Shown here one piece after another: positions 20,173 through 55,500 of a stretch of DNA of 61,758 bases; positions within the stretch are counted from its first letter, which is position 1, and each line of letters starts with the position of its first letter. Location of the stretch: assembly GCA_964515685.1 (NCBI GenBank), contig CAZEWA010000003.1, forward strand, positions 1 through 61,758, in the 5' to 3' direction. Position numbers and translations under genes: made by a program. The notes below the pieces were generated by a model. It was not told where the DNA came from. It searched no databases and saw nothing but the letters and a program-made list of their open reading frames with translations. Source of the DNA: an uncultured Polyangiales bacterium. GTDB taxonomy: Bacteria; Myxococcota_A; Polyangia; Polyangiales; DASUME01.

Positions 20173-20215
20173 TTGACTATTGCATGCGCAGCAGTGCATA
20201 TGCATGGTCATGCAT
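20173..20215 (+). promoter_or_regulatory. Putative ArsR promoter/operator: TTGACT followed by TGCAT-rich palindromes
   Basis: TTGACT at 20173-20178. TGCATG at 20181, the perfect palindrome TGCATATGCA at 20195-20204, then TGCATG at 20201 and TGCAT at 20211, overlapping the likely start codon. ArsR/SmtB regulators usually autoregulate through such inverted repeats. Confidence 0.35.
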
Positions 20216-21048: not shown

Positions 21049-21091
21049 GTAGACGACGGCGCCATCGGGCGGTAGACGACGGCGCCATCGG
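21048..21091. repeat. Perfect 21-nt tandem direct repeat GGTAGACGACGGCGCCATCGG x2 (period 23)
   Basis: Copies at 21048-21068 and 21071-21091. The first begins in the TAG stop of the SRPBCC gene. GGCAGCCTGC is also duplicated at 21090 and 21110. Confidence 0.9.
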
Positions 21092-21399
21092 CAGCCTGCA
21101 CGGGTCTCTGGCAGCCTGCTGGGCCTCGTTCAGGGGGACACGGGCTCTGCGATGACGCGCTGCGCCAGTTACAGCGTCGTTGTCCTCACTCTCAGAGCAG
21201 GTACCGCCACCCGGTTCCAGGGGCCGTGTCGGGAGAGCCCGTCGGAACTAAAGATGATAGGTCCTGCGAGTGCTATCGCAAGCCGTCAGATGCCGGCTGC
21301 GCCGTGCCCTCTGGGGAGGCTTGATTCTTCTCGATCGTCTGTACATAGTTTGGGGGCGGCTGGTCGTATATATGCCCCTCACGCGGAAGGTACTGCCTC

Positions 21400-22194
21400 T
21401 TGGATGAGTCACTGCGGAAATTGATTCGCACGATGCAGAGCGAGTTTTCTTTCTTGAAGGAAGCTAAGGACTTCGTTTACCGCATCCAACGACGACTGCT
21501 CACGAGGCCGCACGAGCACGAGTTCCGGGCGCTGAAGTTCATTCCGGACGACCTGCCCGGTTCCTACGTCGATATCGGAGCCAATCAGGGCCAGAGCATC
21601 GAGTCGATCAAGAAGGTCAAGCCGAAGGCGCGGGTGTACTCCTACGAGGCCAATCCGCTGCTCGCCGAAAAGCTTCAAAAGCGGTACCAGAAGCGCGACG
21701 ACATCAGGGTGTTTGCGTTTGGTCTCGGCGATGAGCCCAAGAAAATGACGCTCTTCGTTCCGGTCTACAAGGGCTTCGTCTACGACGGAGATTCCTCCCT
21801 GGACCCTCAGATGGCGTCGGCTCTGCTCACACCCGAGCGCCTCTACTGGTTCAACCCGAAGCAGGTGGAGCTCCGGGAAGTCGGCTGCGCCATCGAGCGC
21901 CTGGACGAGCAGAACCTCGATCCGGTGTTCATCAAGATGGACGTCCAGGGGTACGAGTCGCTGGTCGCGAGGGGAGGGATCGAGACCTTCAAGCGCTGTG
22001 AGCCGGTCCTTATGGTCGAACGGGTGTACGACCACACGGAACTGATGAGCATTCTCGATACGCTGGGCTACGAAGAGTACCTGTTCGACGAACACGGATT
22101 CTATCCCGGCAGTGCGCCCCACGCGCTCAACCAGATCCTGATGACGCCGCGGCGCGCCGCCGAGGTGCGTCGCTCGGCCGCTGCTTCCGCTTGA
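21400..22194 (+). CDS. FkbM-family SAM-dependent methyltransferase
   Basis: 264 aa. YVDIGANQGQSI SAM-binding motif and FIKMDVQGYE. The start is uncertain (TTG at 21400 or ATG at 21433). Confidence 0.75.
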   Translation: MDESLRKLIRTMQSEFSFLKEAKDFVYRIQRRLLTRPHEHEFRALKFIPDDLPGSYVDIGANQGQSIESIKKVKPKARVYSYEANPLLAEKLQKRYQKRDDIRVFAFGLGDEPKKMTLFVPVYKGFVYDGDSSLDPQMASALLTPERLYWFNPKQVELREVGCAIERLDEQNLDPVFIKMDVQGYESLVARGGIETFKRCEPVLMVERVYDHTELMSILDTLGYEEYLFDEHGFYPGSAPHALNQILMTPRRAAEVRRSAAASA

Positions 22195-22220
22195 GCGGCT
22201 CCTGGGCTCGCGCGGCGGGC

Positions 22221-23900: not shown

Positions 23901-23925
23901 GCGCGTTTTCCTTGTTCTGGATGGG

Positions 23926-25446
23926 TCACAGGCACGCGTTTTCGCCTCCGCCTACAGGCGGAAGCGCTGGTGGCGTGCGTTTGTAGTTAAGGTCCACTTG
24001 CTGCACGCGATCCGTGCGCTCGGGCGCGGTATCGAGCAACAGCGGCATGATGCAGGTATTCGTGTCTGCCCAGAGCGTGCTGCCTTCTGTCAGGCTCCCG
24101 AACACATCGGTGCGCCACGGATTTTCAGCAGGCAAAAGCTGCAGTCCGGCTGTCGGATGCGCGGCATTCAGCGCGCCCCACTCGAGGAACGAGGCCGCGT
24201 ACCAGCGTGCCTGTGCCCCCGTCACAGCGAGTAATGCGAAGGTCACAGCAGCGCTGAAACCTTGGTCGCCATCGTACACAATGGCCGTTTTGCTGGGGGC
24301 TATGCCTGCGTTCGCGAAGGCCAAATCGAGCTGAGCCAAAGGCCGAATGGTGTAGTCCACGGGGTCGATGATGGCGTCCCCGGCGAGATGGACGGCGCCC
24401 TTGATACGGCCCGAGAAAGAGGGCGTGCAGTGAGGTGCTCCGAGGCGGCAGGTGTTGTCGACCGGACTTGTTCCGAGGACGCTGCCTGCATACTCGGCTT
24501 CCGTGCGGACATCTACGAGCGTATCTTTGCCGAGCGCGTCGCGTACGGCTCCCACATCGGCGAGCAGAACGAAGTGTCGGTTGATGAGGTCTGATACACG
24601 AGCCGTCCCATCGAAACCAGGCGCATCAGGAAACGCTTGCCGATTCGCAGCCGGAACGTCGGCATCGACCGAGCCATTGTGGAGCCCCAGGAAGGCGTGC
24701 TCCGCACCCCAGTAGCGCAGCGTCAACCATGCCCGCGCTACCCCCCCTAGGGCGTGTTCGGAGCTTTTTCCCACGGTCAGGAGCACGAAGTCGTGGTTGG
24801 GGCGCACGTCGTGCTTGCGCAACCAGGTGTCGATGCGGGTGCCGTTGGCGGGCACGCTGCCCACGGCCGTGAGGCCATTGCTGCGAGGCTCGAGAAAGAA
24901 GCGTAAGTCCGCCCCGTCGTACACGCGCACGCGCCGCGTGACTTCGACGCCGCCTTCGTGGCGAGCGCTGAGGGTACCTTTGATGAACTTGCCCGGCTCG
25001 CTCGCCGCGTCGAGCTGAACTATCACGAGATCGCCCGGAACTTCGCTGGGGCGAGTGTTCGCCCAGTCTTCGAGCCACGTCAGCAGTCTGCTGGTCGCGA
25101 TGAGTCCGCTCTGATTGTCCGCGTAGTCTGGAGCCGAGCGCACGGCGAGCGAGCTGGGCGTCGCAGGCTCCACCGCGTCCACAGGATGCGCGGGACTTGC
25201 CGCATCAGGCTCGGCATCTGCCGGGGGGGCCGCTGCGTCGCTAGCTGCGTCAGACAACGGGCCTGCATCGGGCACGGCGTCGCCTCCGTCTGGATCGTCC
25301 ACGGTGCGCGCATCGGGCGTGGGTTCTGCGTCGAGGTCACGTGGGGACGCCGACTCCTCGTGGCACGCACCAACGAACCAGAGGGGTAAGCAGAACAGCG
25401 CGAGTGCAACGCCGGAAATGGGGCGTACGAAGGCGATGGTTGTCAT
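23926..25446 (-). CDS. Lipoprotein with tandem rhodanese-like domains (paralog B; catalytic Cys replaced)
   Basis: 506 aa. Lipobox FVGAC, acidic/Pro linker, RAWLTLRYWGAEHAFLGLHNGS, LVDVRTEAEYAG, FSGRIKGAVHL. The loop position reads AIVYDGDQGFSAAV, with Asp in place of Cys. Confidence 0.7.
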   Translation of the reverse strand: MTTIAFVRPISGVALALFCLPLWFVGACHEESASPRDLDAEPTPDARTVDDPDGGDAVPDAGPLSDAASDAAAPPADAEPDAASPAHPVDAVEPATPSSLAVRSAPDYADNQSGLIATSRLLTWLEDWANTRPSEVPGDLVIVQLDAASEPGKFIKGTLSARHEGGVEVTRRVRVYDGADLRFFLEPRSNGLTAVGSVPANGTRIDTWLRKHDVRPNHDFVLLTVGKSSEHALGGVARAWLTLRYWGAEHAFLGLHNGSVDADVPAANRQAFPDAPGFDGTARVSDLINRHFVLLADVGAVRDALGKDTLVDVRTEAEYAGSVLGTSPVDNTCRLGAPHCTPSFSGRIKGAVHLAGDAIIDPVDYTIRPLAQLDLAFANAGIAPSKTAIVYDGDQGFSAAVTFALLAVTGAQARWYAASFLEWGALNAAHPTAGLQLLPAENPWRTDVFGSLTEGSTLWADTNTCIMPLLLDTAPERTDRVQQVDLNYKRTPPALPPVGGGENACL

Positions 25447-25465
25447 GGCGCGACCCTGCGAATGT

Positions 25466-27082
25466 TCAGGGCTGCGCGAGCTTGTAGGCGCGGTCGTCGA
25501 TCACGGACTGTGAGGCCGTGGTCGAGGCGGGCACGAGTAGGATGGGCGTATCGCTGATGTCCGCGTCGAGGTTATAGTTGGGGCCGTCGATCCAGCCGGT
25601 GATCGTATGTGCGTCGGGATCGAAGGGTAAGCCAGGCGTGTATCCTGTGACTGTGGCGTGCTCGGTGAACGTCGCCAGATCGGTGCGATAAGCAGAAGCT
25701 TCCGGCAAGGTCTGGGTCTTTGCCGTCGGCCCATAGGCTAGGTGCGACCACTCGATGAACGACGTGTCATAGAATCGTGTCGGATAGCCGAGGATCACTG
25801 ACGAGACGACGCCGGTCACCATGGAGCGCACGTTCGTGCGGCAGTACTGGACCACCACGTTTCCTGTTTTGTACTCCGACTGCGTGTCGAAGATGTCCTT
25901 CACGGTGGCCTTGCTGAAGAAGCGAAAGCCGTTCGCGGAGGTATCGAGGAACTGGGTCCAGGGCACGCTGTATGCGCCCTTGATGCGCCCTTCAAACAGC
26001 GGCGAGCAACGCGTGTTGGCACCGGAGTTGTCGTAGCTCGGGCAGTCGGTCTTGCCGGTGGAGGTGGACTTCAAGAGGCCCAGGGCTTCAGCGCCGCCTC
26101 GCGCATCTACAATCGTGGTCTTGTTGCGTGGTGTTGCGCTGGCTGCGTTCTTCAACGTACCGAGCAAGCCGTCGAGCGTGATCACAAACTGCGTGTTGTC
26201 GGTGCGCAGCTCTCGCACGGATACGCTGCCGTTGTTGGGAGGCGTGGCCGGCACGTCGGTGGACAGCACAAGCTCTTCGTTTGCGCTGTTCCAGTTCACG
26301 CTGCCGTTCAAGAGTGCGATGCGGTCCTTCGCGTAACCCCAGTAACGAAGCAGCAGCCAAGCTCGGGCTGCCTGCTGCACGATGGCGTTGGCCGTGGCGG
26401 GCGCGGCTCCAACAGCGGGCAGTTGCTCGAACGTGACGACGACGAAATCCTGGAGCGCGTCGATACCGTACTTTTTCAGCAGCGTATCGGCGCTCTCACC
26501 ATTGGGAATCTCCGCTTCGATCTGGGAGAGACCATTGTTGCGCAGCTGCGTGAGCTCGCTTTGTGCGACCAGGTAAGAGACTACGTTCGTGCCGTCGCCT
26601 GCCACGTGGGTCTGTGAGTTGGCTACGTTCGGTACGACCTGCAGCACGACGAGCTTGCCGGTTACACCTGCGGGTCGATTGGCCGGCCAGTTGCTGATCC
26701 AGTTGGCCAGGGTTGCACCGGTGATGAGACCGTGCTTGTTGTCTGCATAGTTGTCGGCAGAAACATCGGCCAGTTCTGCAGGGGTCGCAGTCGGCAGCAG
26801 ATCGACATTCGCATCGGGCTCTTCGCTAGCATCGAACTCCTCGCTAGCATCGAGCTCCTCGCTCGCGTCAGGTTCGACCGCTGCATCGCTGCCTGCGTCG
26901 AGCTCTGCGTTCGCATCCGTATCGGATGCCGCATCCTTCGTGTCGTCCACGCCGGAATCCGCGACGGGGTTATCCGAGGGCGAGCTTGTATCATCGGAGC
27001 ATGCGCTGAGGAGGAGCGCAGACGCCAGAAGGAAGGAACCCATACCTGCGGACCGCTCAAGCCGCCTTACTCTGCGCGTCAT
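25466..27082 (-). CDS. Lipoprotein with tandem rhodanese-like domains (paralog C; Cys loop CRTNVR)
   Basis: 538 aa. Lipobox LLSAC, a DASEE hexapeptide linker, RAWLLLRYWGYAKDRIALLNGS, FEGRIKGAYSVPW, VVVQYCRTNVRSMVTG...FYDTSFIEW. The start may be the ATG at 27043. Confidence 0.7.
   Translation of the reverse strand: MTRRVRRLERSAGMGSFLLASALLLSACSDDTSSPSDNPVADSGVDDTKDAASDTDANAELDAGSDAAVEPDASEELDASEEFDASEEPDANVDLLPTATPAELADVSADNYADNKHGLITGATLANWISNWPANRPAGVTGKLVVLQVVPNVANSQTHVAGDGTNVVSYLVAQSELTQLRNNGLSQIEAEIPNGESADTLLKKYGIDALQDFVVVTFEQLPAVGAAPATANAIVQQAARAWLLLRYWGYAKDRIALLNGSVNWNSANEELVLSTDVPATPPNNGSVSVRELRTDNTQFVITLDGLLGTLKNAASATPRNKTTIVDARGGAEALGLLKSTSTGKTDCPSYDNSGANTRCSPLFEGRIKGAYSVPWTQFLDTSANGFRFFSKATVKDIFDTQSEYKTGNVVVQYCRTNVRSMVTGVVSSVILGYPTRFYDTSFIEWSHLAYGPTAKTQTLPEASAYRTDLATFTEHATVTGYTPGLPFDPDAHTITGWIDGPNYNLDADISDTPILLVPASTTASQSVIDDRAYKLAQP
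26819..26872. repeat. 18-bp in-frame tandem repeat (3 units) encoding the DASEE(L/F/P) linker
   Basis: CTCTTCGCTAGCATCGAA / CTCCTCGCTAGCATCGAG / CTCCTCGCTCGCGTCAGG. They lie inside rhodanese-like paralog C. Confidence 0.85.
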
Positions 27083-43315: not shown

Positions 43316-45130
43316 TCAGCGCACGAGCAAGCCGACACCAGGATGCGTGTAAGGCGGTGCGCCAAAGCGCGAGGGATCGACGCTGAGCTTGGCTGCCAGG
43401 GTGAGCACATGGCGCTCGGCGGCCTGGGCGCGCTCGGTGTCTGCTTGTGCAGCGTCTGCTGGCTCGGCATCCGCCAGTTCTTCGGCGTAGCGGAAATCGC
43501 TGGCGCGCTCTTCTGGCAAACGTTCCCCGAAGTCGAGCTCGGTTTTACCCTCCGCGTGGACATAGGCGCGCAGGAGCTCGCCTCGCTCGGCCACTGCGAA
43601 GACGATGCCTGACACGGCGGCGTCGGTTCCGAACAGGCACACGCGGCACTGCAGGGTTTGGCTCAGACCACCGAGTACGCTGCGCAGCTCGTCGAGGCTG
43701 CGTGTGCGCGGGGCATAGCCGAGTGCCAACACCTGACCGTCTTGTTCGGGCGTAAGGTACACGCCGCGTGGACTTACCTTGCCGTTTGCGCAGTCGACGC
43801 CGCGTGTCCAGCTGCACAAGTCTGCGCGCCGGCCGGCAAAGCGCGTGTCCACGGCTTGCAGCGCATTGAGGGCTTGTGCGGGTTCGCTCGCGCGCATCGA
43901 GAGCCACTGCGCATCGGGTCCGAACGGGCAAGGCGGCTCAGCTCCGCGAGGCAGCGGGGGCGAGATGCGCTCGGTCAGCCAGCGCAGCGAAAACCAGCTC
44001 ATGTCTGTCTCGTGGCTGACAGGACGCATGGACTCGTTGCCGCTGCGTGTGATGCTGGCGAGCGAGCTAAACGAGAGCACTGCATCTCGCAGTGGGTGTT
44101 CGCTGTCTTGGGCCTTTTCGTGCGCGCTGCCGGCTGCGGCGCGCTCGCGACGGGCCATGGCGTAGCGAACCATGTGGCTCACGTCGGCGGCTGTGACTCG
44201 CAGCTCGTGGCGCGCCAGGTACTCGGCAATCGCCGCGCGTATCTCGCGCGCCGTCTGAAACCTGACTTCTCGATCCCTGGCCAACATCTTCTGCAGCAGC
44301 GCATCGAGCTCGGTATCGACACCTGGGCGCAGGCCGTGCAGCGCCGGCACCTCGGTCTTCTGAACGTTCTTCACGGTGGCGTAGTCCGTGTCGGCTAAAA
44401 ACAGGCGCCTACCTGCGAGGGCCTCCCACAGCACGACCCCCAGCGAGAACAAGTCGGCACGCGCATCGACCGCTTGCCCCAGCGCGGCCTCGGGCGAGAG
44501 ATAGCCGTACTTGCCCTTCACCACGCCGGGATCCGTGGCCTCGAGCTGCGTCGTGGCTTTGGCCAGGCCGAAGTCCATCAGCTTCACTTCGCCGCTCTTG
44601 GTGAGCATCACGTTCGGCGGAGAGACGTCGCGATGGACGATGTTGAGCTGCGCGCCGCGCTCATCGCACAGCTCGTGTGCGTGGCCTAGCGCGCTGCACA
44701 GCTCCATCACGATGAAGAGCGCTTCTCGAATGCCGGGGCGTCGCTTGTGCTTCTGCAGCTGGTCGAGCAGGCTCTTGAGGTCGAGGCCATCGACGAGCTC
44801 CATCACGATGAAGTAGCTGCCGTCGGCCGCCCCCACATCGAAGACACGCACGATGTTCGGGTGGTTGAGGCGCACGCCGATACGGGCTTCATCGAGGAAC
44901 ATGCGGGCGAAGCGCTCGTTGTGCGCAAGGTTCGGGAGAACGCGCTTGAGGGCGACGGGATTACCGGCCCTCTCCCCGTGCAGCGCCTCGCCCAGAAAGA
45001 CCTCTGCCATGCCCCCTGTCTCGAGGAGGCGTGTCACGCGGTAACGTTGTTCTTCAAAGCTCTCTGGCATCGTCGCGACAGATCTCGTTGCTGGGCGTGC
45101 ATGTATCATATGCGCGCAAAGAGAACTCAT
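43316..45130 (-). CDS. Hanks-type serine/threonine protein kinase with a ~300-aa C-terminal domain of unknown function
   Basis: GGMAEVFLG glycine loop, VALKRV lysine, catalytic loop IVHRDVSPPNVML, DFGLAK, YLSPEA. No TM segment is evident. The start is probably the ATG at 45070 (MPESFEEQRYRV). Confidence 0.9.
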   Translation of the reverse strand: MSSLCAHMIHARPATRSVATMPESFEEQRYRVTRLLETGGMAEVFLGEALHGERAGNPVALKRVLPNLAHNERFARMFLDEARIGVRLNHPNIVRVFDVGAADGSYFIVMELVDGLDLKSLLDQLQKHKRRPGIREALFIVMELCSALGHAHELCDERGAQLNIVHRDVSPPNVMLTKSGEVKLMDFGLAKATTQLEATDPGVVKGKYGYLSPEAALGQAVDARADLFSLGVVLWEALAGRRLFLADTDYATVKNVQKTEVPALHGLRPGVDTELDALLQKMLARDREVRFQTAREIRAAIAEYLARHELRVTAADVSHMVRYAMARRERAAAGSAHEKAQDSEHPLRDAVLSFSSLASITRSGNESMRPVSHETDMSWFSLRWLTERISPPLPRGAEPPCPFGPDAQWLSMRASEPAQALNALQAVDTRFAGRRADLCSWTRGVDCANGKVSPRGVYLTPEQDGQVLALGYAPRTRSLDELRSVLGGLSQTLQCRVCLFGTDAAVSGIVFAVAERGELLRAYVHAEGKTELDFGERLPEERASDFRYAEELADAEPADAAQADTERAQAAERHVLTLAAKLSVDPSRFGAPPYTHPGVGLLVR

Positions 45131-45704: not shown

Positions 45705-47330
45705 CTAGGACTCTTCGAGCTCCTGCGTTCGGAGCAAGATGCTCCCGTCGGAGACGGAGATGACTTGCTCGTCTTTGTTCGCGACGCGGCGAATATCCAG
45801 CACGGGCTTGGCCTCTCGGTAGTGGTGTTTGACGGAGGTTCCATCGTCGATCTTCTTGCCGAGCAGGAGGTGGTTGCCCTGGCTCTCGGCAGGCAAGCGC
45901 GCGTCCTTTCGCCAATCGAGGAAGCCTACGATGCGAGCTGACTGAAAGTGGATTTCCAGCAGCACTCGCTGGTCTCGGATCGCAGGGAAATAGAATTGCC
46001 CGGGAGCGAAGAGGGGTTCGTACGGTGCGATCACGACAGCGTCGTCCCACAGGGGCACCTTGACGCGATAGTAGTCGAGGGATGTGTCGTCGTCCTTGTT
46101 GGCCTGGTAGGTCCCCTGATCCTCTTCGCCGATCTCGCTGACGACCATGCCTTCAACGAAGATGGGCCAGTGAGGCACTTCGAACGAACCCATCCGCGGC
46201 GCGGTATCGCTCGCGCGCTCAAGCTCCGCGTGGAGGCTGCCCTCATACGTGTTGGCGTCGTCGTCTAAGCTGTCTACGGGGTTCTGGTTCGTGGCGCGCA
46301 GGTCGGCGTGCAGTCGGCGCATCCAGTGAGCTTCCCCGGCTTGCAGAGCGTGGGCGCTCCACTTGGCCCCGAAGGCGTAGGTGAAGCCCGGTCGCACGTT
46401 GCCACGTGGGAAGCGCGAGAAAGCCACGTGCAGCTCTCGATCTGGAGAGATGCTGCGATCCTTCTCCAGCGAGGCCCGCGCGTCGAGATCGGAAGCTATC
46501 GCGGAGCGCATGAGAAAGTCACTGCGGACGCCGGAGACGCTGTCGGTCGCATCGATACTCTTGACCTTGGTGGCCGCCAGGGTCGAACCGTTGAGTACGC
46601 GAGGGGTCGCGCGGGAGCGGACCGGAAAGAACACGCGCAGGGAGGCTGTTTCGTCCGGTCTCAGGTCGTCTCCCTTGCCGAGTGGAATGCGGTTCGACCC
46701 GAGCCGGTATTCGAGCTTTTCGGCGTCGTACTGCAGATAGCCTCCCTCCGTGTAGGTGAGCCATCGCGTGAAGTCGTAGAAGGACGCACGCAGGTCGCCC
46801 GCGTCCAAGCCCAGGCAGATCACGGGCCGCACCTCGTTCAAGAAGGGCCACTCGTACTTCAGCTCGACGCCCTCTGGCAGATTGGCCCCGAACATGTCGG
46901 CGAGGGTCTTGTCGCAATACAGGGCGCACGGTCTGTGCTGGGCCCAAAGAACGGCGAGCTTGTCGGCGAAGCGCACATTGTAGCGCCGCTGCATGATAGG
47001 GGAGCCAGAAAGGTCCTCGAAGGCCCGCTCCGAAAGCTCGCGGGTTGTCACCAGGCCCTTGAGCACGACGGGCGCGACGACCCCCGCCTCGTCATCGTAC
47101 AGGGGCTCCAGGTTCAAGGTCGCCTCGATCAGATCGTTCTCTACGAAAGGTTCCTTGAGCTTGTCCTCCGATGGGTCGCGCAAGCTCACGTGCCACCACG
47201 TCACGTCTGCTTCAAAGCCCTGCGCCGTCCAGTCGAAGGCCATCGCCTTGATGTTTCCGCCGGGAACGCTGAAGTCCTTGCCGCCGATCGTGAGTTTCAA
47301 GGATGCTCGCAGTCGACTTCGGAGCGTCAC
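45705..47330 (-). CDS. vgrG: VgrG-like spike/hub protein (gp27-like plus gp5 OB-fold), short C-terminus
   Basis: 541 aa. The N-terminal pattern LKLTIGGKDFSV...FEADVTWW...RRYNVRFADKLAVLWAQHRPCALYCDKTLADMF parallels the VgrG gp27 region. YYRVKVPLWDD...GQFYFPAIRDQRVLLEIHFQSARIVGFL parallels the gp5 OB-fold. GTG start with GTGA overlap onto the tssE stop. Confidence 0.65.
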   Translation of the reverse strand: MTLRSRLRASLKLTIGGKDFSVPGGNIKAMAFDWTAQGFEADVTWWHVSLRDPSEDKLKEPFVENDLIEATLNLEPLYDDEAGVVAPVVLKGLVTTRELSERAFEDLSGSPIMQRRYNVRFADKLAVLWAQHRPCALYCDKTLADMFGANLPEGVELKYEWPFLNEVRPVICLGLDAGDLRASFYDFTRWLTYTEGGYLQYDAEKLEYRLGSNRIPLGKGDDLRPDETASLRVFFPVRSRATPRVLNGSTLAATKVKSIDATDSVSGVRSDFLMRSAIASDLDARASLEKDRSISPDRELHVAFSRFPRGNVRPGFTYAFGAKWSAHALQAGEAHWMRRLHADLRATNQNPVDSLDDDANTYEGSLHAELERASDTAPRMGSFEVPHWPIFVEGMVVSEIGEEDQGTYQANKDDDTSLDYYRVKVPLWDDAVVIAPYEPLFAPGQFYFPAIRDQRVLLEIHFQSARIVGFLDWRKDARLPAESQGNHLLLGKKIDDGTSVKHHYREAKPVLDIRRVANKDEQVISVSDGSILLRTQELEES

Positions 47331-47719
47331 GACACGTTCCTCGGCTTCTCGCCCACGTGGATCTCCGTGCGCCGTGGGTTGCAGATCACGAAGAGGGACA
47401 CGCCGCTGGTGAGGACTCGGCAGTGGGCGAGCACCATCGCCTCTTGGGTGTCGTCGTCGAAGACCTCGTCACAACGCAGGATCTCGAGCCGCCTCTCGTA
47501 GAGCCCCACGTTCTCCCTGATTTGCAGGCTGATCTCCGACACCATGGTCTGGACCGTGCCGTAGCCAGTCGTGGAGAGCCCATAGTTTTCGCGAAACGAG
47601 CTGCACCCTCTGCGGGCCACGAACATGGCTCGCAGGTTGAGGAGTATGTCCTCGAGCTCCAGGGCGGCAGGACTCTTCATGGGCTCGGGTTTGGCGATGA
47701 AGTGCTTTCGAAGGAACAT
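47327..47719 (-). CDS. tssE: T6SS baseplate wedge protein TssE (GPW/gp25-like)
   Basis: LELEDILLNLRAMFVARRGCSSFRENYGL...ISLQIRENVGLYERRLEILRCDEV matches the gp25/TssE pattern. I prefer the ATG at 47719 because GGAG lies 7 nt upstream; the track start is 47743. Confidence 0.65.
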   Translation of the reverse strand: MFLRKHFIAKPEPMKSPAALELEDILLNLRAMFVARRGCSSFRENYGLSTTGYGTVQTMVSEISLQIRENVGLYERRLEILRCDEVFDDDTQEAMVLAHCRVLTSGVSLFVICNPRRTEIHVGEKPRNVS

Positions 47720-47733
47720 TGCGCGGCTCCTGG

Positions 47734-48846
47734 TTAGCGCCAAAGGTGATCGTGACGTGGCTTCGAAGAAAGCCGCGTGCGCTCGCTCGCGCTGTAGACG
47801 AGCTCATCGTCCGGGGGGCGGTCGTCGCATATCCCGTCCGCGGTCGGGTCCCCGGTGTTTCCCTCAAACAGGATGATCCTCTGGCGTGGGCCGACAAGAC
47901 TCTCCCAGATGCGTGTGGCCTTTCTCTCTGGATCTCCGCGCCAGGGATAGCGGACATCGAGCGGAATCTCGCCCAGTACGCGGTCATACCCGAGGACCGA
48001 GTACCCTTCTCGTGTGGGCGCCGATGTCTTGCTGATGACGGCGCTGGTGCGATGGGGCAGATCGAGCTCGACCTGCAGCGGAAGCCGGAACGGTCTCAGA
48101 AGCGGCATCAGCGTGCGCGACAGGCGCGCACGCACGAGATCGTACCAGCGTTCTCCGTGATCGTGGTACTCGTCCGCGGCGAAGAGCCTGACCGCGAAAC
48201 CCGGCGCGACAGTCTCGAACACGTGCCCCACCACGGCTGTGCCGTCGAGCCGAGATGAGCCCGTCCTCGCTCCAAAGCTCTGGTTGTGCTCAGGCTGAGC
48301 CATTCTCCGTACCTCGACGATGAACTCGGGGAAGAGGCTGTGAAACAGCCAGTGCAAGGTGCTCATCGAGGCCGTCCCCAACGCATGAAGCAGCGCCCGC
48401 TTGGTGCGGCCCCAGTCCTCGAAGACGAGCCCATCGGTTTCGGGAGAGATGGCACGCGCGTAGTTGTCGAGCAGCTTGTGCTCGAAGAACCGGAAGAATG
48501 AGAGCATCCGATCGGGATCGGGACTTGTCTCCAGTATGCCCTGGAAGTAGCTCGGAAGGAGTCCATGGCCGCCCCACAGGCCGATGTTGAGTGTGATGGT
48601 GACGTAGTCGCTCGCCGATTGGGCGTCGGGCGCGCTGAAGGAGCCAATGTCGTGGCGGCTCCAAAACTTGACCGACTCCACGAGCGATCGCGCAGAGTGT
48701 GAACCCGGATGGCTCTGCAGGAAGGTCCGCTCGCGGGCGTACCCTTGCGCGGCCAAAAGGCGCAACAGGGCGGGTAGATCGAAGTCACGCGCCCGCTGCG
48801 TCACGCGTCTCTCGAAGGCCTGGCATGGAAGCGCCGCGGCTTTCAT
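47734..48846 (-). CDS. tssG: T6SS baseplate protein TssG
   Basis: 370 aa. DFDLPALLRLLAAQGY, ITLNIGLWGGHGLLPSYFQGIL, MLSFFRFFEHKLLDNYARA and LFPEFIVEVRRMAQ follow the conserved TssG blocks. Confidence 0.7.
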   Translation of the reverse strand: MKAAALPCQAFERRVTQRARDFDLPALLRLLAAQGYARERTFLQSHPGSHSARSLVESVKFWSRHDIGSFSAPDAQSASDYVTITLNIGLWGGHGLLPSYFQGILETSPDPDRMLSFFRFFEHKLLDNYARAISPETDGLVFEDWGRTKRALLHALGTASMSTLHWLFHSLFPEFIVEVRRMAQPEHNQSFGARTGSSRLDGTAVVGHVFETVAPGFAVRLFAADEYHDHGERWYDLVRARLSRTLMPLLRPFRLPLQVELDLPHRTSAVISKTSAPTREGYSVLGYDRVLGEIPLDVRYPWRGDPERKATRIWESLVGPRQRIILFEGNTGDPTADGICDDRPPDDELVYSASERTRLSSKPRHDHLWR

Positions 48847-49854
48847 CTAGCCTCTCCTGTGCTGCTGCGGGCTCGCCTCGGCTTCGAGGTCTGCGAAACC
48901 GTCGAGGTCCGTGCGATAGAGCTGGCTCAGGAGGCTCCACTCCAGTCCCTCACGCTCCTCCCAGTACGGAGCGAGCTCGCTGACGTGGCCTGACAGCGCG
49001 CGAAAGTAGCTGCGAAACAGCGCCGGGAAGTAGAGCACGGGGTCGAAGCTTTCGAGTAGCTTGTTCACATCGTCGGCGACGATGGCCGCCCGCTTGTACG
49101 AGCCTTTGGTCGCGAGCGCCTGAAAGACGCGCAGCTTGGCGCAGAGCGCGACGAAGTGAGGGGAGACATCGAGTGAGACGGATCTCTCCTCGGGACTCAA
49201 GGCTTCGATGGGCGTGAGCTCTCCGCGATCGAGCGGCTCGAGGGGAGCATTCCGCGGAGTGGAAGCCGTTTGGAAATCCGGGGGCTGGTCGCGGCCCGTC
49301 CGTGGGTCCTCGTTGTCCGAGGTTGGGAGGGCGCGCAGTTCGTGGACGAACACCACCAAGGAGGACGTCGCACCGGTCAAGTTCCTCTCTGAAAAGAGGG
49401 AGAGAAGGTCGTCCGTGCGCGCAAGGCAGGCTTGCTTGAGGGGCTCGGTGAAGGCTTCGTTCCAGCGCCCTTCGAGGGTGGCCGGTGTGCCCCGCGCGCG
49501 AAGGTTCTCCGCCATGACGCGAAACAACCACTCGAGCCGCTTGTCGAAGTGCTGCGTGCGCATGCTGAGCGGGCCGATGCTGTCTCCGCGGACTTTCAGG
49601 AGGGCCTCGAGCGCGTCGAGTAGCGCCGGAACCCCTGCCGGTCCCGTTTCTACGAAGTGTCCGTGCAGGCAGTACACGGCGAGCCGGATGTCGTGTATCC
49701 CTTCGTTCCAGAGCGATGCCGCCGCGTTCGCAGCCTTGTCGAACGCGGACTTTTCCCACAGCGAGACGATGGCCTCGTACGCCCCTTCATTGAAGAGAGG
49801 CTTCGGTGTCTCCGTGTCGGCGGGCAACCGGAGCAGCGATGCGAGGGGTTCCAT
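48847..49854 (-). CDS. TssA-like (ImpA N-terminal-domain-like) protein
   Basis: About 335 aa from MEPLASLLRLP. SLWNEGIHDIRLAVYCLHGHFVETGPAGVPALLDALEALL resembles the ImpA_N core. The match is weak and the position in the cluster is the main support. Confidence 0.4.
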   Translation of the reverse strand: MEPLASLLRLPADTETPKPLFNEGAYEAIVSLWEKSAFDKAANAAASLWNEGIHDIRLAVYCLHGHFVETGPAGVPALLDALEALLKVRGDSIGPLSMRTQHFDKRLEWLFRVMAENLRARGTPATLEGRWNEAFTEPLKQACLARTDDLLSLFSERNLTGATSSLVVFVHELRALPTSDNEDPRTGRDQPPDFQTASTPRNAPLEPLDRGELTPIEALSPEERSVSLDVSPHFVALCAKLRVFQALATKGSYKRAAIVADDVNKLLESFDPVLYFPALFRSYFRALSGHVSELAPYWEEREGLEWSLLSQLYRTDLDGFADLEAEASPQQHRRG

Positions 49855-49882
49855 GGATGACTCTCCGCGACAATGGTGAAGG

Positions 49883-50269
49883 TTAGATCTGAACTGTAAG
49901 CTGGCCGGGGTTGACCACACTCACGACGCCGCCCCAGGCGCAGATCAGGGTGGAGCTTTGGTCGAGCGCCGGCATCCCTCCGATCAGAATGTTCGGCTTA
50001 CCCGGGAGCCAAGGAGCGACAGTGGCAGGGATGCAAGGTTGAGGAGTCAGCACACCGAGCGCGGCGGCCGTCGCCGCGGCGACGAGCGGGTTGGCGAGCG
50101 ACGAGCACACGCCGAAGGGAAGAACGTTCGCCAAGGGGATGTTGTCCATCACGGTCGCAACCGGCATGGCTTGCGCGATGACCGCCGTTTTGGGGACGAC
50201 CGTGAGCACCGAGGGCGCGGCGCCGAAAGAACACTTGAGGGTGGCTCCCATACACACTTGACAGCTCAT
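49883..50269 (-). CDS. DUF4280 (PAAR-like) spike-tip protein
   Basis: 128 aa from MSCQVCMGATLKCSFGAAPSVLTV...NVLPFGVCSS...PQPCIPATVAPWLPGKPNILIGGMPALDQSSTLICAWGGVVSVVNPGQ, a classic DUF4280 Cys pattern. ATGA overlap with the upstream gene's stop at 50266. Confidence 0.8.
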   Translation of the reverse strand: MSCQVCMGATLKCSFGAAPSVLTVVPKTAVIAQAMPVATVMDNIPLANVLPFGVCSSLANPLVAAATAAALGVLTPQPCIPATVAPWLPGKPNILIGGMPALDQSSTLICAWGGVVSVVNPGQLTVQI

Positions 50270-52056
50270 GGTCGGCGACTCTCTTGTCCAGGCTCCATCG
50301 AGGGAAGCGCTGCGGGCTCTGCTCCGAGCAGCGCGAGCGTGCGCTTGAGCGCAGCGAGCTCGACAAACACGGCGCGGCGGGCTTTGTGGAACAGGACATT
50401 GCCGAGCACCTGCCTTCGCGCCCAATCGGAGTCCACCGCGCCTTGGTCGTCCAGGTGGGGAAGAAGCGGCAGCAGATGAATCTGTTGAGGTAAGGCCCAT
50501 GCGCCGAGTTCACGCTCGATGAGCCCGCGAATGTGGTGGGTCAGGGTGCTCCTCGAGCGCTCAACTTCCTCTGCCGCACGTGGGTCGACGAAGACGATCA
50601 GCAGCGCCTCGGAGTGGTTGACTTGATGGGTCGCGGGGAGCATGACGGCCGTCGCGCAGTCGGCGATGGCATGGTGGACGAGTAGGCGGGAGACCTCCGC
50701 GCTGGGATAGCGAACGCCAGCGCGCCACGCGTCGAGGGAACCCAAGAGCTGGTAGTGGTCCTGGTTCTCGGAGAGCAGAAATTGTCCGGCGCGACCGTCC
50801 ATGAGCTCTCCTTGTGGCCGGAATATCCCGACGGAGCCTATCGCCGGTTCGCCGCTTCCATTCGTGTCTTCCAGCGACCAGGCTTGTCCAGGGCTCGGCA
50901 TGACGGAGAACAACTCAGGGCGCTCCTGCTTGCGCGAAAAGAGCAGGGAGCCACCGCAGGCGGCCGAGGCCAATAGGTTGAATCCTCGCGCTCCCTGGGG
51001 CGCTAGCGCCTTGGAGAAGTCATCCCAGCGCGTGAAGTCGGCGGGCTGGGCGGGATCGCGGAACCAGCGGCCTACTTCGAGTGCTGCGAGCTCTCGCGAC
51101 TCCAGTAAAAGGTCGCGAAGCTCTGGTGTCACCCCCAAGAGCGAGGGCCGAGCCTCCACCAATCGCCGGGGGTTTTGCGTCACCTGGGCTAGGTCGAGGA
51201 AAGCGTACTCTCCGCCGCCAAACCAAGTGACGAGCATCAGCCACGGATGCATCACGACCGGATCGAAGCCGGGCGCGGCCACGCGCTCGCCGGGCTGGAC
51301 AGGCAAGATGAGCCCAGCGTCTCGCAGGAGCCCCGTGTAGAGCCCGTGGGCGCTGAGCTCGCAGGGCATCTCCGAAGAGGGCGCGTAGGGCGAAAAGAGC
51401 TGGAGAGCGGGGTCGTCAGCGCCGTAACGATGGGCGCTTGGCGCGATCGTGGGAGCCTTGAACTGGGGATCCATCAGGGGCAGCACGCGATCGGCGAACG
51501 CGCCGAGCCAGGGCTCGAAGAGGCGGTCCACTACGATGTAGTCTGGCGTGAGCGCGGCCACTCGATGCTGTACGAAAGCAGCCCCATGCGGCGGGATGCA
51601 GGCGACCTGAAGTCCAGAGCGCAGCGCCGCGAGCACGGCGACGGCGTACTCGGGGCCAGGGTCTGCGATCACGCAGACGATTTCGCCTGGTGCGACGCCC
51701 TGCGTCAACCAGTAGGCGTGGATCCGAGTCGCTTGCTTCCCGAGTAGCTCGAAATCAACTTGTAGCGCATCCCCGCCTGGATCTGTCCAGCGCAGCGCCT
51801 GGAGCCGCCTGCTCGTGCGTCGAAAGCGCTCGCAGAGGTCGTGAAAAAAGTCGTAGCGCATCCCTAGCTCGCTCTGGAGGCGAACACCGCTTTCGCCCTC
51901 GAGGCGCTGCATGAGCGAAGCGTAGAACCCCTCGGGGTTGGCGAACGATCGCGCGTGCCACGAGGCGTCGAAGTCCTTCGCGCTGGCGAGCCCGCCCACG
52001 GCGGACGAAATGGCGCCGAGGTCGAAAGGGAGCGGTTGTTCGGGTCTGCTGATCAC
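50266..52056 (-). CDS. ANL-superfamily (acetyl/acyl-CoA-synthetase-like) protein with degenerate catalytic motifs
   Basis: 596 aa. The N-terminal half follows the ACS layout (ALRWTDPGGDALQVDFELLGKQATRIHAYWLTQGVAPGEIVCVIADPGPEYAVAVLAALRSGLQV). The P-loop position reads QLFSPYAPSSEMPCE (nt 51358-51402) instead of YTSGTTGxPKG. The A10 lysine region reads LPHLDDQGAVDSDW. GTG start 2 nt after the tssJ stop. Confidence 0.65.
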   Translation of the reverse strand: MISRPEQPLPFDLGAISSAVGGLASAKDFDASWHARSFANPEGFYASLMQRLEGESGVRLQSELGMRYDFFHDLCERFRRTSRRLQALRWTDPGGDALQVDFELLGKQATRIHAYWLTQGVAPGEIVCVIADPGPEYAVAVLAALRSGLQVACIPPHGAAFVQHRVAALTPDYIVVDRLFEPWLGAFADRVLPLMDPQFKAPTIAPSAHRYGADDPALQLFSPYAPSSEMPCELSAHGLYTGLLRDAGLILPVQPGERVAAPGFDPVVMHPWLMLVTWFGGGEYAFLDLAQVTQNPRRLVEARPSLLGVTPELRDLLLESRELAALEVGRWFRDPAQPADFTRWDDFSKALAPQGARGFNLLASAACGGSLLFSRKQERPELFSVMPSPGQAWSLEDTNGSGEPAIGSVGIFRPQGELMDGRAGQFLLSENQDHYQLLGSLDAWRAGVRYPSAEVSRLLVHHAIADCATAVMLPATHQVNHSEALLIVFVDPRAAEEVERSRSTLTHHIRGLIERELGAWALPQQIHLLPLLPHLDDQGAVDSDWARRQVLGNVLFHKARRAVFVELAALKRTLALLGAEPAALPSMEPGQESRRP

Positions 52057-52058
52057 TC

Positions 52059-52568
52059 CTATCTCTTCTCGCCTACGTCTGCCGCTCGCCGAATCGCTCG
52101 CTCTTCGATGACGAACCCGAGCTGTGCCTGATGTGGACTTGGCAAGAGCACTTTCCAGGCGCTGCTTCGGTTGGTGAAGAAGACATAGAGCGCGAGGTCG
52201 GCACCCTCCGTGACACGCAGGTCGAGAGACCTGGACTCGCCCGGGTAAACCAATCCCTGCCGCAAGACGGTACTATCCGGCTCGCTCTGCAGAGCCATCG
52301 ACAACGCCGCGTCGTAGCCGAGGGCAAAGCCATCGCGCTCCGTGAGCTCTCGGACCATGTAGTATACGGGCCTTCGCTCGTTTCCCTTGGGTCCTGCGAT
52401 GAGTCCGAGCTTGATGGGAACGCCCTTCTCCTTGACCGGTGTCGTCTCGGCCGTGCTCGATGCTGTGTGGGACCTCGCGCAGCCGAGCAGCACCCACACG
52501 AGCACGAGCCATGGACAGGCGCGCCGTACGGCCGTGCGGGGCGAGGTCGCGTGCAGCTCGCGTATCAT
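52059..52568 (-). CDS. tssJ: T6SS outer-membrane lipoprotein TssJ (SciN-like)
   Basis: About 169 aa from MIRELH. Lipobox LLGC. IKLGLIAGPKGNERRPVYYMVRELTERDGF...LVYPGESRSLDLRVTEGADLALYVFFTNRSSAWKVLL follows the TssJ pattern. ATGA overlap with the tssM stop. The track ORF (to 52856) is over-extended. Confidence 0.65.
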   Translation of the reverse strand: MIRELHATSPRTAVRRACPWLVLVWVLLGCARSHTASSTAETTPVKEKGVPIKLGLIAGPKGNERRPVYYMVRELTERDGFALGYDAALSMALQSEPDSTVLRQGLVYPGESRSLDLRVTEGADLALYVFFTNRSSAWKVLLPSPHQAQLGFVIEERAIRRAADVGEKR

Positions 52569-55500
52569 CGACGCGCTCTCTTCTGGCAGAGCGAGCTCTC
52601 CTGGAGAAGCGCGAACGGCGCGAACGGGTCCTTCTCGAACCGTAGGCGTACCGCAGGCTTTCGCGCTGTCGCGCGCGGGGCGGCGAGCGTCCAAGTGCCG
52701 ATGCATCCATTGGGGCCCTTGGCCTCGACCACGAGCTGCTTCGTCAGATGAAGGAGTGCCCAGTGTGAGCGCGGCGTGGAAATGAAGGAGCTCGCGTCCG
52801 CGCCTCCCGAAGTGCGTACGCGCGCGGTCAGCTCCGCGTCGTGGGCGTCGAGCCACGGTATCGCCACGCTCATGGGCATGGGGGCTTGGTTGACGTAGGG
52901 CAATTCGGCTCGCTCACCACTGCGGAGCTCGATGCGCTCGAGGCCAGATTCCGAGTCGAAGGGGAGAAGTTCCACACTAACGCCGTAGGCTTTGGGCGCG
53001 CCATCCTCCCGCCATAGTTGCCTCTGCAATGCTTGGATGCGCGACCAGGTTTGGTGCAGCTCACGGGGCACCAGACCGTGGCCTCCACGGACGAGCGGTG
53101 CGACCAGGAGATCGTAGGTCTTGGGTAAGGAGCCCTGGCCCGGGTGCAACACCGCGATCAGGCTGGCCGGGCTCGCGTCGGTCGCGGAGTGGGGGTCGAA
53201 AGGGAAGTGCCCGCTCAGGACTTTGAGCTGTGGCTTCAAGCTCGCTTCCCACACCGCTGCCCCGATCTCCCTCAGGCGACGTAGTCCGAGGTCGCGGAGC
53301 GCCAGGATCGGGGCTTCGAACATCGGCGTGAGCAGCGGGGGGATCTGCGCGGTCAAGCGCCAGGTATCGAAGCGCGCTTGCACAGAGTCCTCGGCGCCGG
53401 CGAGGATCGGCAGCACGAGTCTCGCGGCGGGGCTCAGCAAGTCAGCCAACCGCACCTCTCGACCCTCTGCTGCCGCCGCCTGGAGTCGCTCTGTTGCAGA
53501 GCTGCCAGCGCCTTGAGCGAGTTCGTTGGCGATGTCACGCAAGAGGTTTTGATACTCAGAGAGCGCAGCATCGAGCGCCTCGCCGTCGCTCTGAGGGGAC
53601 GGAAGGTCGAAACGTCCAAGCGCGTCGGCGAGCGCGGAAAGCGGGCCGTCCTCCCCGCTGCTGGCTTGGGCGTCGCCGCGTACATCGGTGATCTGCTGCG
53701 CGCTCGAGAGCGCGAGCTGCAGCGCCGCGGAAGGGCTACCAAGGCTGTTGAGCTTGGAGGAAAGACCTTTTTCAAAGAGATCGGCGAAGGACGCCTCAAC
53801 CGTGGACAGCTCGTGCGTCACGCCGTGCCCGTAGCTCTCCCCGTAGGCGACGGCGAGCCTGTCTACGGCGGTCATCCATGCGCTACGGAGCGCTGGCAGG
53901 GGAGCGAGAGCTTGGGAGAGGGAGGAGGCAGCAAGAAACAGTGGCTTGAGATGAGTCAGATAGATCTCGCGCTTGAGCGGGGCGCCAGGGGATAAGCCGA
54001 GCAGCTTGCGTCCTGGGTCACCGAGCGCGGAAGGCGCGGCGTCATCCGCTGGGATCGCGCGTTCGACCTGCTCGGTGAAAGCGGCGATGATGAAGCGCAT
54101 GCGCATGCGACCCACGGTGCGTAGCAGGTTGATACTCGAGTAGATAGCGCCACTTTCGCCATCGGGCTTGGGGATCGAAATGACATCGCTCCACGCGCGG
54201 GGCTCTCCGAGGGGGGCAGAGAGCTCTCCGCACGTACTCGGGTGAGCGTCTTGGGGCCGCGCGGCGAGTTCATGGCGTGTGCAGAGCTCGGCCCAGAGGT
54301 CTTGCATCGCCTGCTGGAGCGTGTAGTCGCCTTCGAGCGGTCGTGGGGTAGAGATGGACAGCACGAGACTCAGGAGCGGATTCCGTTCCTGCGCTGTCTG
54401 GGAGACCTTGCCTGTGCGCGGCATCAAGCCGCCCAGCGTGCTCTTGTAGTGCTGCGCGGGCTGGTCGTCTTCGAGGCGATCGAGGATGTCATAGGCGAGC
54501 CAGTGCTGCCCGATCCATCGCAAGCGCTTCTTGAGCGAGTCTTGCTGGGTCTGTGCGCTTCGCTTGAGCTCGCTCAGCTTACCAGGGGAGGCGTCCGCGT
54601 CATCACGTACGAAGTCATTCAAATCGGCGAGCCACTTCTGCCAAGGGAGCGCCACTTCAGCCACGGGAAGCGCACGAGGGACAGGCAACGTGAGGCCGCT
54701 CAGGTCGGGAGGCGGCGCCGCGGCCAAGTATCCGCGCAGGGATTCGGTGTCGAAAGGGGTGTGCGTCACGAATTCGGGCAAATCTTCTCCTAGGGCAAGC
54801 TGCTTGAGCTCTTCGTTGCCCGGCGCGTGAAGAAGTCCGAGCAGAAAGAGCCCGTCAATCTGACTGTCAGAGTCTCCGTTGGAGATGCTGAGCGCCGTCG
54901 CGGGCAGCAGTAAGCGATCGCGGAACAGGACGGAGGCTTTGCGGGCGACTACCGGCGCCGCGCTTGCGAAGAAGGGAAAGGCAGGCAGAGGCAGACCCGT
55001 CTTGACGCCGCCCGAGACGAACTCCGCGACGGCAGCGCGCGCTTCGATCTCGTTCTTTCTCCATCCTTGGTTACACAACGTTTTGGGATACGCCTCAAGG
55101 CTCGCGATGGCGCTGGAGAAGCGTTGCTCTTCAAGCAGATAGCTGCTGATCGCATAGAAACTGAGTGCGATTGACCCGAGGACCGTGAACCAACGGTGAG
55201 GCCACAGGAGGTACTCGCGTGGCAGCGTCTCCTTACGCGAGCCTGGACGCAGGGGATTGGAGCCCCATCGAGAGGGCGCTTCGGTCGTGTCGGTAAGGAC
55301 CAGCTCGGTCAGCAGAGGGGTCTCGCGCATGCGGACGTGCTTGCCCAATCCCTCGACGAAGACGGCCAGTTTCGAGGCGAGCGCTGGTAGGGCTCGGCAG
55401 AACGCCGTGACACCTCGGCAGTCGTCGGGCGACTGGGTGACGAGCGACTGGGGAAGGACAGTTCCAAACGTGCGGAGAGCCTGCGACATCCCTTCGTCGT

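Follow-up and report, generated by a model that had tools for sequence, protein, structure and literature searches.

A large family of ANL-fold pseudoenzymes is most likely a conserved component of a Francisella-related type VI secretion system lineage

We analysed a stretch of 61,758 nucleotides from an uncultured Polyangiales bacterium (NCBI GenBank assembly GCA_964515685.1, contig CAZEWA010000003.1, positions 1 to 61,758 of the forward strand), called the window in the following, which carries on its minus strand a gene cluster for a type VI secretion system (T6SS). Our subject is one gene of this cluster, at 50266..52056 (-), and the family to which its product belongs; the name X is used for both the protein and the family. 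An earlier note on this DNA had described X as a protein with the scaffold of the acyl-coenzyme A (CoA) synthetase-like enzymes (ANL) that had lost its catalytic motifs and was embedded in a T6SS cluster. The coordinates, strand, length of 596 aa and GTG start that it gave were confirmed from the open reading frame (ORF) and its translation, as were the positions of the two peptides that it singled out, namely QLFSPYAPSSEMPCE (aa 219-233, nt 51358-51402) and LPHLDDQGAVDSDW (aa 532-545). The GC content at the three codon positions of the ORF (0.73/0.48/0.76) is typical for a real gene at 62.5% genome GC. Neither a signal peptide nor a transmembrane segment was predicted in X, which is expected to be a cytoplasmic protein, and the plasmid search gave no match for it.

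The cluster reads, all on the minus strand, small VgrG-like protein, TssF/IglH, DotU, a gap, TssM/PdpB-like protein, IglE-type TssJ, X, DUF4280 protein (IglG-like), IglI-family protein, TssG-like protein, TssE and a 541-aa protein that we call U540, followed by a Ser/Thr kinase. Directly upstream of X lies the gene of the IglE-type TssJ, an outer-membrane lipoprotein of 169 aa with a LLGC lipobox (52059..52568 (-); Pfam IglE_N, E 3.9e-11). The listed ORF of 265 aa is too long for this gene, and the ATG at 52568 is the likely start. It is preceded by the TssM/PdpB-like subunit of the membrane complex (52565..56428 (-); Pfam IcmF-related_N, E 6e-6, with a weak match to TIGR03348). Directly downstream of X is a PAAR-like tip protein of 128 aa, similar to IglG (49883..50269 (-)), whose aa 5-123 match positions 1-109 of Pfam DUF4280 (E 9e-35) and which also matches NCBIfam T6SS_IglG (E 3e-15); this protein has no N-terminal extension. 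The TAG stop of tssJ (52061-52059) is separated by 2 nt from the GTG of X at 52056, the stop of X and the start of the DUF4280 gene overlap as ATGA at 50269-50266, and the tssJ ATG at 52568 overlaps the tssM stop in the same manner. Because of these ATGA overlaps and the 2-nt spacing, tssM, tssJ, X and the DUF4280 gene are serially coupled in translation. Thus, the coupling on both sides of X that had been claimed before was found as described, and the gene arrangement also supports the claimed co-expression with structural genes, as these genes would be co-transcribed and translationally coupled.

Further upstream, the membrane, baseplate and spike genes comprise DotU/TssL (57826..58755 (-); Pfam DotU, E 3e-12, and a TIGR03349 match), the TssF/IglH-like baseplate subunit (58752..60533 (-); Pfam T6SS_TssF, E 6.5e-27, and an NCBIfam TssF/IglH match) and a small Francisella-type spike protein similar to VgrG (60562..61224 (-)), which matches NCBIfam T6SS_TssI_Fran with E 0.0023 and, weakly, VgrG and gp5 beta-helix chains of the PDB. 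Downstream of the DUF4280 gene, the IglI-family protein (48847..49920 (-)) scores 216 bits with NCBIfam IglI_fam, a family weakly similar to TssA/ImpA_N. The IglI-family proteins of other loci (L040 11961-12965; L005 12130-13254; L numbers denote related loci) match TssA TIGR03362 with E 6.7e-7 and ImpA_N weakly. Given the weak to moderate matches of this family to TssA and ImpA_N models, IglI of Francisella and its relatives could supply the TssA-like cap that is missing from subtype-ii-type systems. Next come a TssG-like baseplate subunit in the IglJ position (47734..48846 (-)), whose Pfam T6SS_TssG match (E 1.8e-4) is below the cut-off and whose synteny is conserved, and the gp25-like baseplate subunit TssE (47327..47743 (-)), recognised by phmmer against the TssE proteins of L001, L002, L007 and L009 (E 3.7e-34). 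An ORF of 172 aa at 47469-47987, which lies across parts of tssE and tssG in a different frame and matches only itself in the synteny comparison, is probably spurious. Finally, U540 (45705..47330 (-); also L009 16239-17867) has no Pfam or NCBIfam match and is found in over 20 related clusters at one fixed place, between tssE and the small VgrG gene or tssF. It may partner the small VgrG in the hub, in the manner of PdpA or gp27.

Regarding the fold of X, the Pfam AMP-binding model (PF00501) gives 23.6 bits and matches only aa 107-176 (70 residues), which is under the gathering cut-off of 29.9 and leaves X outside the family by Pfam's own threshold; AMP-binding_C matches with E 0.0065. A profile of four X sequences found Salmonella Acs in the PDB (E 1e-7), covering the N-terminal part and the part with motifs A8-A10, and a family profile of 143 sequences was aligned by hhalign with real propionyl-/acyl-CoA synthetases over 469 columns (probability 99.3%, E 2.5e-20). 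The AlphaFold2 (AF2) model, computed from the deep alignment, reaches a predicted local distance difference test score (pLDDT) of 94.8 and a predicted template modelling score (pTM) of 0.93, with both domains packed confidently; an earlier run on the four-sequence alignment, with pLDDT 47, was set aside. In the Foldseek comparison of the model with the PDB all of the top 50 matches were ANL enzymes, with AMP-forming acetyl-CoA synthetases in the lead, the best being 8rpk_A (E 6e-27, template modelling (TM) score 0.73), and Salmonella Acs reached a TM score of about 0.7. Furthermore, the next-best matches to the family in a database of 5.8 billion sequences were true propionyl-CoA synthetases and adenylation domains of nonribosomal peptide synthetases (E about 1e-12). 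AF2, Foldseek and hhalign all show the ANL topology of a large N-terminal domain and a small C-terminal domain of about 110 aa, and the ANL/acetyl-CoA-synthetase scaffold claimed by the earlier note is confirmed by the PDB profile match and by these three methods: as modelled, X keeps the complete two-domain fold.

The catalytic motifs are a different matter. As a control we used the canonical ANL acyl-CoA ligase encoded in the same window at 4347-5912 (-), next to an acyl-CoA dehydrogenase at 5909-7096 (-). This ligase scores 306 bits with Pfam AMP-binding and shows SGSTGVPKG (A3), FGPTE (A5), YPTGD (A7) and PRTSSGK (A10), whereas a pattern search found none of the four (A3 P-loop, A5 TE, A7 TGD, A10 GK) in X. 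A P-loop-like pattern ([ST]GTTGxPKG) was present in 0 of the 143 aligned family members. The former A3 site would be the strand-loop-strand at aa 219-233 (QLFSPYAPSSEMPCE, 51358..51402 (-)), where SGTTGxPKG is expected and the family consensus is LFSPxxxxxxxP. In the AF2 model a strand (216-221), a loop (222-230), a second strand (231-235) and a helix (236-250) follow each other, which fits the earlier placement of the former P-loop at SPYAPSSEM, whereas the hhalign register places it as an 11-residue deletion after Y240, just downstream of aa 219-233. The exact register is therefore ambiguous, and Gly, Thr and Lys are gone under either one. At the other end of the protein, the degenerate A10 motif forms part of a C-terminal signature, PRxxxxGxVDxxWCxxQYLxGxLxRK (aa 532-563, 50368..50463 (-)), in which the position of the catalytic Lys is Ala540: hhalign puts G539-A540 of X on G-K of LPKTRSGK, and column 540 of the family holds A33/E30/R12/S12 and no Lys. 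The family appears to have AAxGG at A5 and, at A7, hydrophobic residues or a gap under either register. Thus, the loss of the P-loop and the degenerate C-terminal Lys region that had been reported for this one protein hold across the whole family, and the motif alignment that the earlier note called for shows no intact ATP-binding or catalytic residues. As far as can be judged from sequence, X has lost every residue class needed for ATP binding and acyl-adenylate formation, which supports its being a pseudoenzyme as to adenylation chemistry.

Compared with the AMP-forming acetyl-/propionyl-CoA synthetases (Salmonella Acs 1PG4/2P2J, Chloroflexota AcsA 8RPK, PrpE 5GXD), X has the same fold in both domains (TM 0.70-0.73), an Acs-type N-terminal extension, A1 (LSYxxL), A2 (LLAALRxG), part of A8 (GRxYPxxEV) and an A9-like PD. 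On the other hand, it is without the A3 P-loop, the A5 Thr-Glu, the A7 Asp and the A10 Lys, falls under the Pfam threshold, carries an extra conserved C-terminal helical extension at aa 543-578 and is encoded in a T6SS operon, not a metabolic one.

An exhaustive profile search of 1.84 billion representatives, with a family cut-off of E <= 1e-30, gave 328 representatives of 50%-identity clusters, all of about 540-600 aa and matched end to end; 143 of these make up the family alignment. A word-indexed homologue search badly under-reports the family, as it gave only 3 relatives, and with the 143-sequence profile the same 3 together with true ANL enzymes. Likewise, a genome scan with the four-sequence alignment found one metagenome-assembled genome (MAG) of Haliangium only. 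Family members with a named host come from Desulfonatronospira, from Myxococcota and Haliangium MAGs and from Ca. Uabimicrobium amorphum, which belong to the phyla Desulfobacterota, Myxococcota and Planctomycetota. In the alignment 28 columns are at least 90% conserved and lie outside the classical ANL motifs. The motifs specific to the family are LFSPx7P, ALRDG, LRD, WFRxP, NLxxxAAxGGxxLFS, VLPAPG, RxGRxYPxxEV, PD and the C-terminal signature, in which D542, W545, G553 and L555 reach at least 90% conservation and which, in the alignment and the AF2 model, runs into three helices past the ANL C-domain. These family-specific conserved columns show strong purifying selection on a new function, not drift. 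That such a family exists and is conserved is well established, if somewhat surprising.

There is no dedicated database family for X, which makes it a large unnamed family: 74 of 80 relatives have a weak Pfam AMP-binding match and nothing else (E <= 1e-3, best 1.3e-15). Because of these weak matches, NCBI and UniRef call family members 'AMP-binding protein' (Desulfonatronospira WP_008870032 and Myxococcota MAGs) or 'acetyl-coenzyme A synthetase' (Ca. Uabimicrobium amorphum), and 'AMP-dependent synthetase and ligase' is also among the names.

We then have to consider where the family is encoded. Loci were collected from contigs encoding family members and from the genome and metagenome scans, their ORFs were labelled by phmmer against reference proteins of annotated loci, and 34 distinct loci remained after near-duplicates were removed. 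T6SS genes adjoin X in 33 of these, and the remaining contig (L023, 1.9 kb) carries only X. Where the upstream side is visible, X is preceded by IglE and this by TssM in 17 of 21 loci, and the other 4 begin a divergent operon or an orphan island. The downstream neighbour is TssB(-TssC) in 21 loci, DUF4280 in 6 (the window and 5 others, from several lineages including Ca. Uabimicrobium) and IglI in 4. X is thus co-located with T6SS core genes at a fixed operon position across three phyla, which is the synteny of orthologues that the earlier note had proposed to look for. As a correction to the earlier note, the most constant neighbour of X is tssM-tssJ and not the PAAR-like gene.

The loci with TssB-TssC after X, which we call class 1, have the order ClpB-TssM-IglE-X-TssB-TssC-Hcp-TssK-TssE-U540-smallVgrG-TssF-DotU-U117-TssG-... 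One of them (L040), read further, continues with TssG, a Zn-finger protein, IglI (286 bits; TssA model E 6.7e-7), a 605-aa protein of unknown type, a small DUF2345-like protein and a canonical PAAR. In the class-1 cluster read to its end no DUF4280 was found within 10 kb of X nor in the further 10 kb downstream. U117, a class-1 protein of 116 aa, was considered as a divergent DUF4280 and rejected (hhalign probability 0.08). The model of the small Francisella-type VgrG is matched with E 1.5e-7 by a class-1 protein of 172 aa, whose gene is L040 7093-7611 and appears again as L009 17898-18416. Three other loci have features of their own. A Myxococcales MAG carries an orphan trio of X, DUF4280 and a 517-aa IglI-like protein (L008 10001-13773), with no other T6SS genes within 10 kb. 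In the planctomycete Ca. Uabimicrobium amorphum the cluster begins X-DUF4280-TssG and encodes a fused TssB-TssC sheath of 856 aa (L007 13318-15888). In Desulfonatronospira thiodismutans (L003 11980-21755) X is followed by a 618-aa protein faintly similar to the phospholipase Tle1 and then by several IcsB_M-domain proteins split by an IS21 element; the 618-aa protein and the IcsB_M-domain proteins are probably effector cargo.

Over 14-18 loci, the mean pairwise identity is 0.40 for X, 0.39 for TssM and 0.36 for IglE, and the pairwise identities of X follow those of TssM (Pearson r 0.97), IglE (r 0.90) and TssC (Spearman 0.95).

The clusters that carry X resemble those of Francisella. The best PDB match of a class-1 TssC is Francisella IglB, with 425 bits versus 360 for subtype-i sheaths; the window and related loci match the IglE_N, IglI_fam, IglG and Francisella-type VgrG models; and ClpB is encoded in the X-bearing cluster instead of ClpV. 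By these matches, the clusters belong to a T6SS lineage like the Francisella pathogenicity island (FPI), related to subtype ii. The earlier note recognised neither the FPI-like nature of the cluster (IglE, the IglG-like protein and IglI, with an IglB-like sheath in related loci) nor that X stands in the position of iglF. The order in the Francisella island is iglE-vgrG-iglF-iglG, and IglF is a protein of about 68 kDa that binds IglG (PMC5014421, PMC5481754, PMC5924787). Deletions of iglF and iglG show the same phenotype of rare assembly (PMC5481754).

Our FPI reference, from F. philomiragia (L010), was reached by aligning a related TssC to IglB of PDB 3J9O and searching with the IglB fragment; searches of PDB sequences with window proteins and the TssK of a related locus gave nothing usable for Francisella VgrG, IglE, DotU and IglD. 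Its IglF (L010:17952-19664, 570 aa) was tried as a homologue of X and rejected: hhalign gave a probability of 0.14, and BLASTP, hmmsearch --max with the family and ANL profiles, and Pfam gave nothing. Since there is no sequence similarity, what X and IglF have in common is at most their position. Both are of similar size (about 570-580 aa for IglF), cytoplasmic, without a recognised enzymatic function and plausibly required for assembly, and in the FPI-type cluster of L010 the iglF gene is just upstream of DUF4280/iglG and shortly after iglE. IglF differs from X in a sequence rich in Lys, Asn, Ile and Glu, all-helical as judged by eye only, and the class-1 clusters differ from the iglF arrangement in that X is not directly upstream of a DUF4280 gene. 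Furthermore, IglG binds IglF through an N-terminal helix which the window DUF4280 does not have, as its Pfam match starts from aa 5, versus aa 59 in F. philomiragia IglG. No bridging forms were found between vgrG and iglH in the FPI-like clusters of the gammaproteobacteria Dongshaea marina (L011) and Vibrio sp. S4M6 (L012), where neither IglF nor X is encoded. A 1172-aa protein of the Dongshaea marina cluster (L011 17726-21244) has a DUF4280-like region by phmmer; it may combine a PAAR-like tip with a large extension and take the place of separate iglF and iglG genes.

The loss of the catalytic residues together with the location in T6SS clusters means therefore that X is most likely a non-enzymatic part of the machine. 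We consider it reasonably probable that X descends from an ANL enzyme of the acetyl/propionyl-CoA-synthetase type and was kept as a conserved non-enzymatic subunit or accessory of this FPI-related lineage. With almost the same confidence we can say, in general terms, that it is a non-catalytic cytoplasmic assembly subunit working through protein-protein contacts, and a specific partner, such as a link from the hub to TssM/DotU, is named with much less. The mechanism that we infer would take place in the cytoplasm during T6SS assembly, where contacts would likely be made by the conserved helices added at the C-terminus (DxxWCxxQYLxGxLxRK) and by the frozen ANL cleft. As an adaptor, X would link the spike/baseplate hub, that is, the PAAR or DUF4280 tip with the TssA-like IglI, to the cytoplasmic face of TssM/TssL (DotU). 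This role would resemble, by analogy, the need for IglF, together with IglG, in the efficient initiation of Francisella T6SS assembly.

Several points weigh against this reading. The partner and the step of action are read solely from gene order, and this order is ambivalent, with tssM-tssJ upstream of X and DUF4280/IglI downstream, including the orphan island of L008. The adjacency to tssJ cannot mean direct binding, because TssJ is periplasmic and X cytoplasmic. The co-divergence of X with TssM, IglE and TssC is expected for any co-inherited genes and therefore shows only that X was not swapped between clusters; it is no proof of contact. As the metagenome sample was drawn with a single motif (DHxWCRxQY), class 1, which is one subfamily, is over-represented in it. 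Finally, the invariant polar residues D73, R165, R245-D246, R314, S374, R445, E454, D542 and C546 could form a new ligand-binding or catalytic site.

A possible, if rather unlikely, alternative is that X is a dedicated chaperone or adaptor of the DUF4280 tip, like IglF for IglG or DUF2169 for DUF4150/PIPY, which loads the cone and possibly an IglI-like cargo on the small VgrG before firing. The ATGA overlap of X with the DUF4280 gene in the window, the DUF4280 gene directly after X in 6 distinct loci of several lineages and the orphan island of X, DUF4280 and IglI-like genes all agree with this, as does iglF lying immediately upstream of iglG in Francisella (L010), where IglF binds IglG (PMC5014421). 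In addition, DUF2169 shows that PAAR-like tips can have chaperones of their own (PMC11883445). A strict role of this kind is weakened because some X clusters use a canonical PAAR without DUF4280: in class 1, the majority of the loci sampled, tssB-tssC come after X, a canonical PAAR and no DUF4280 is present where the cluster could be read to the end, and U117 does not fill the place. The DUF4280 proteins are, moreover, without the N-terminal helix that binds IglF, and X has no sequence homology to IglF and no Pfam match to a known T6SS adaptor family. The known tip chaperones and adaptors (DUF2169 for DUF4150/PIPY; Eag/DUF1795; Tap/DUF4123) are cytoplasmic, not secreted and encoded beside PAAR or PAAR-like genes, to which the X-DUF4280 adjacency in 6 loci is similar, and the loss of DUF2169 abolishes sheath assembly (PMC11883445). 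Nevertheless, X has an unrelated fold, is about twice as large, is also present without an adjacent DUF4280 and lies in the core operon and not in auxiliary effector islands (with the exception of L008). No DUF4123, DUF1795 or DUF2169 match was found by Pfam in X and its 80 relatives, which matched only AMP-binding and AMP-binding_C.

Somewhat more doubtful is a bolder form of the assembly-subunit reading, in which X would be an obligatory structural subunit, the mark of a distinct T6SS lineage that is akin to subtype ii of Francisella and found in Myxococcota, Desulfobacterota and Planctomycetota. Bound to the TssM/DotU complex from the cytoplasmic side, it would serve as a nucleation adaptor that brings in the spike and the TssA-like IglI, and the fossil cleft might still sense an acyl or nucleotide metabolite and so gate firing.

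It is improbable that X binds a small molecule (acyl, CoA or nucleotide) or runs a non-canonical reaction in the remodelled cleft, as a sensor or modifier gating T6SS assembly. The whole two-domain architecture is kept, including the region of the A8 hairpin (RxGRxYPxxEV) and the A9-like PD, the model packs the two domains with confidence (pTM 0.93), and many Arg, Asp, Ser and Cys residues outside the classical motifs are invariant, all of which would fit a working cleft. However, the residues that contact ATP and Mg and carry out adenylation (P-loop, A5 Glu, A7 Asp, A10 Lys) are missing family-wide, and in the synteny loci X has no conserved neighbour that handles acyl groups, such as a carrier protein or a thioesterase.

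Even less can be said for X as a cargo or effector that is secreted on the spike tip, a role once suggested for IglF. X adjoins a PAAR-like gene in some loci, has about 65 kDa, near the size of IglF (PMC5924787), and its enzyme-derived fold is of a kind common among effectors. Against this, X has a fixed position in the core operon of 33 loci from three phyla and is not accompanied by an immunity-like gene. An effector would normally vary and be swapped between clusters, whereas X changes as fast as TssM and IglE and together with them, and its catalytic residues are lost. The earlier note had offered three roles for X, namely tip adaptor or chaperone, structural substitute and cargo, of which the fixed core position and the TssM/IglE-like rate make cargo unlikely, and the canonical PAAR of class 1, with no adjacent DUF4280, weakens the tip chaperone.

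The reading of X as an ordinary active acyl-CoA synthetase that is in the cluster by chance is implied by the annotation 'AMP-binding protein', and the database names and the weak AMP-binding matches of 74/80 relatives lend it their support. In effect, motifs and synteny rule it out: X reaches 23.6 bits over 70 residues, under the cut-off, versus 306 bits for the true ligase (4347-5912), it has none of the catalytic motifs, and every locus with visible flanks is linked to T6SS genes. X would then be neither a ligase nor a polymorphic effector.

The 'thiolase-like' proteins of DUF2169 synteny type A (PMC11883445) are, by that paper's description, a similar case of a conserved T6SS-linked protein with a metabolic-enzyme fold, although they differ from X in fold, T6SS subtype and phyla. 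In the literature that we searched, whose coverage was incomplete, so that an earlier description is possible, we found no T6SS component with an ANL/AMP-binding fold, in line with the earlier note, which knew of no standard one, and neither an account of this T6SS lineage nor a fifth T6SS subtype in these phyla. Likewise, no report was found of an ANL-fold pseudoenzyme in any secretion system. T6SS subtype ii is generally taken to be limited to Francisella, and a 2026 review still restricts it to that genus (PMC13584744); the X loci, with their IglE-type TssJ, IglI, small VgrG, IglB-like sheath and ClpB, form a lineage related to subtype ii in three other phyla. X is most likely an undescribed, conserved pseudoenzyme component of this Francisella-related lineage and, as such, an extra component missing from the current T6SS parts lists. 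A whole metabolic-enzyme fold kept only as a scaffold in a secretion machine would be a clear case of pseudoenzyme co-option. Furthermore, metabolic reconstructions of the hosts would be led astray by the hundreds of database entries that now go by the names 'AMP-binding protein', 'acetyl-CoA synthetase' or 'hypothetical protein', and the family could serve as a marker of this T6SS lineage, in hosts that include Ca. Uabimicrobium amorphum and Haliangium. The presence of two different proteins, X and IglF, in the same position may also help to explain the function of IglF, which is still unexplained.

Regarding the rest of the window, five ORFs, each of about 505-560 aa, follow one another at 16658-27082 (-), four of them without a Pfam match and one with a Rhodanese domain only. 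Directly downstream of the T6SS cluster, a Ser/Thr protein kinase (43316-45130 (-); Pkinase, E 1e-34) may be a PpkA-like regulator, and it is followed by a porin and an aliphatic-sulfonate ABC transporter.

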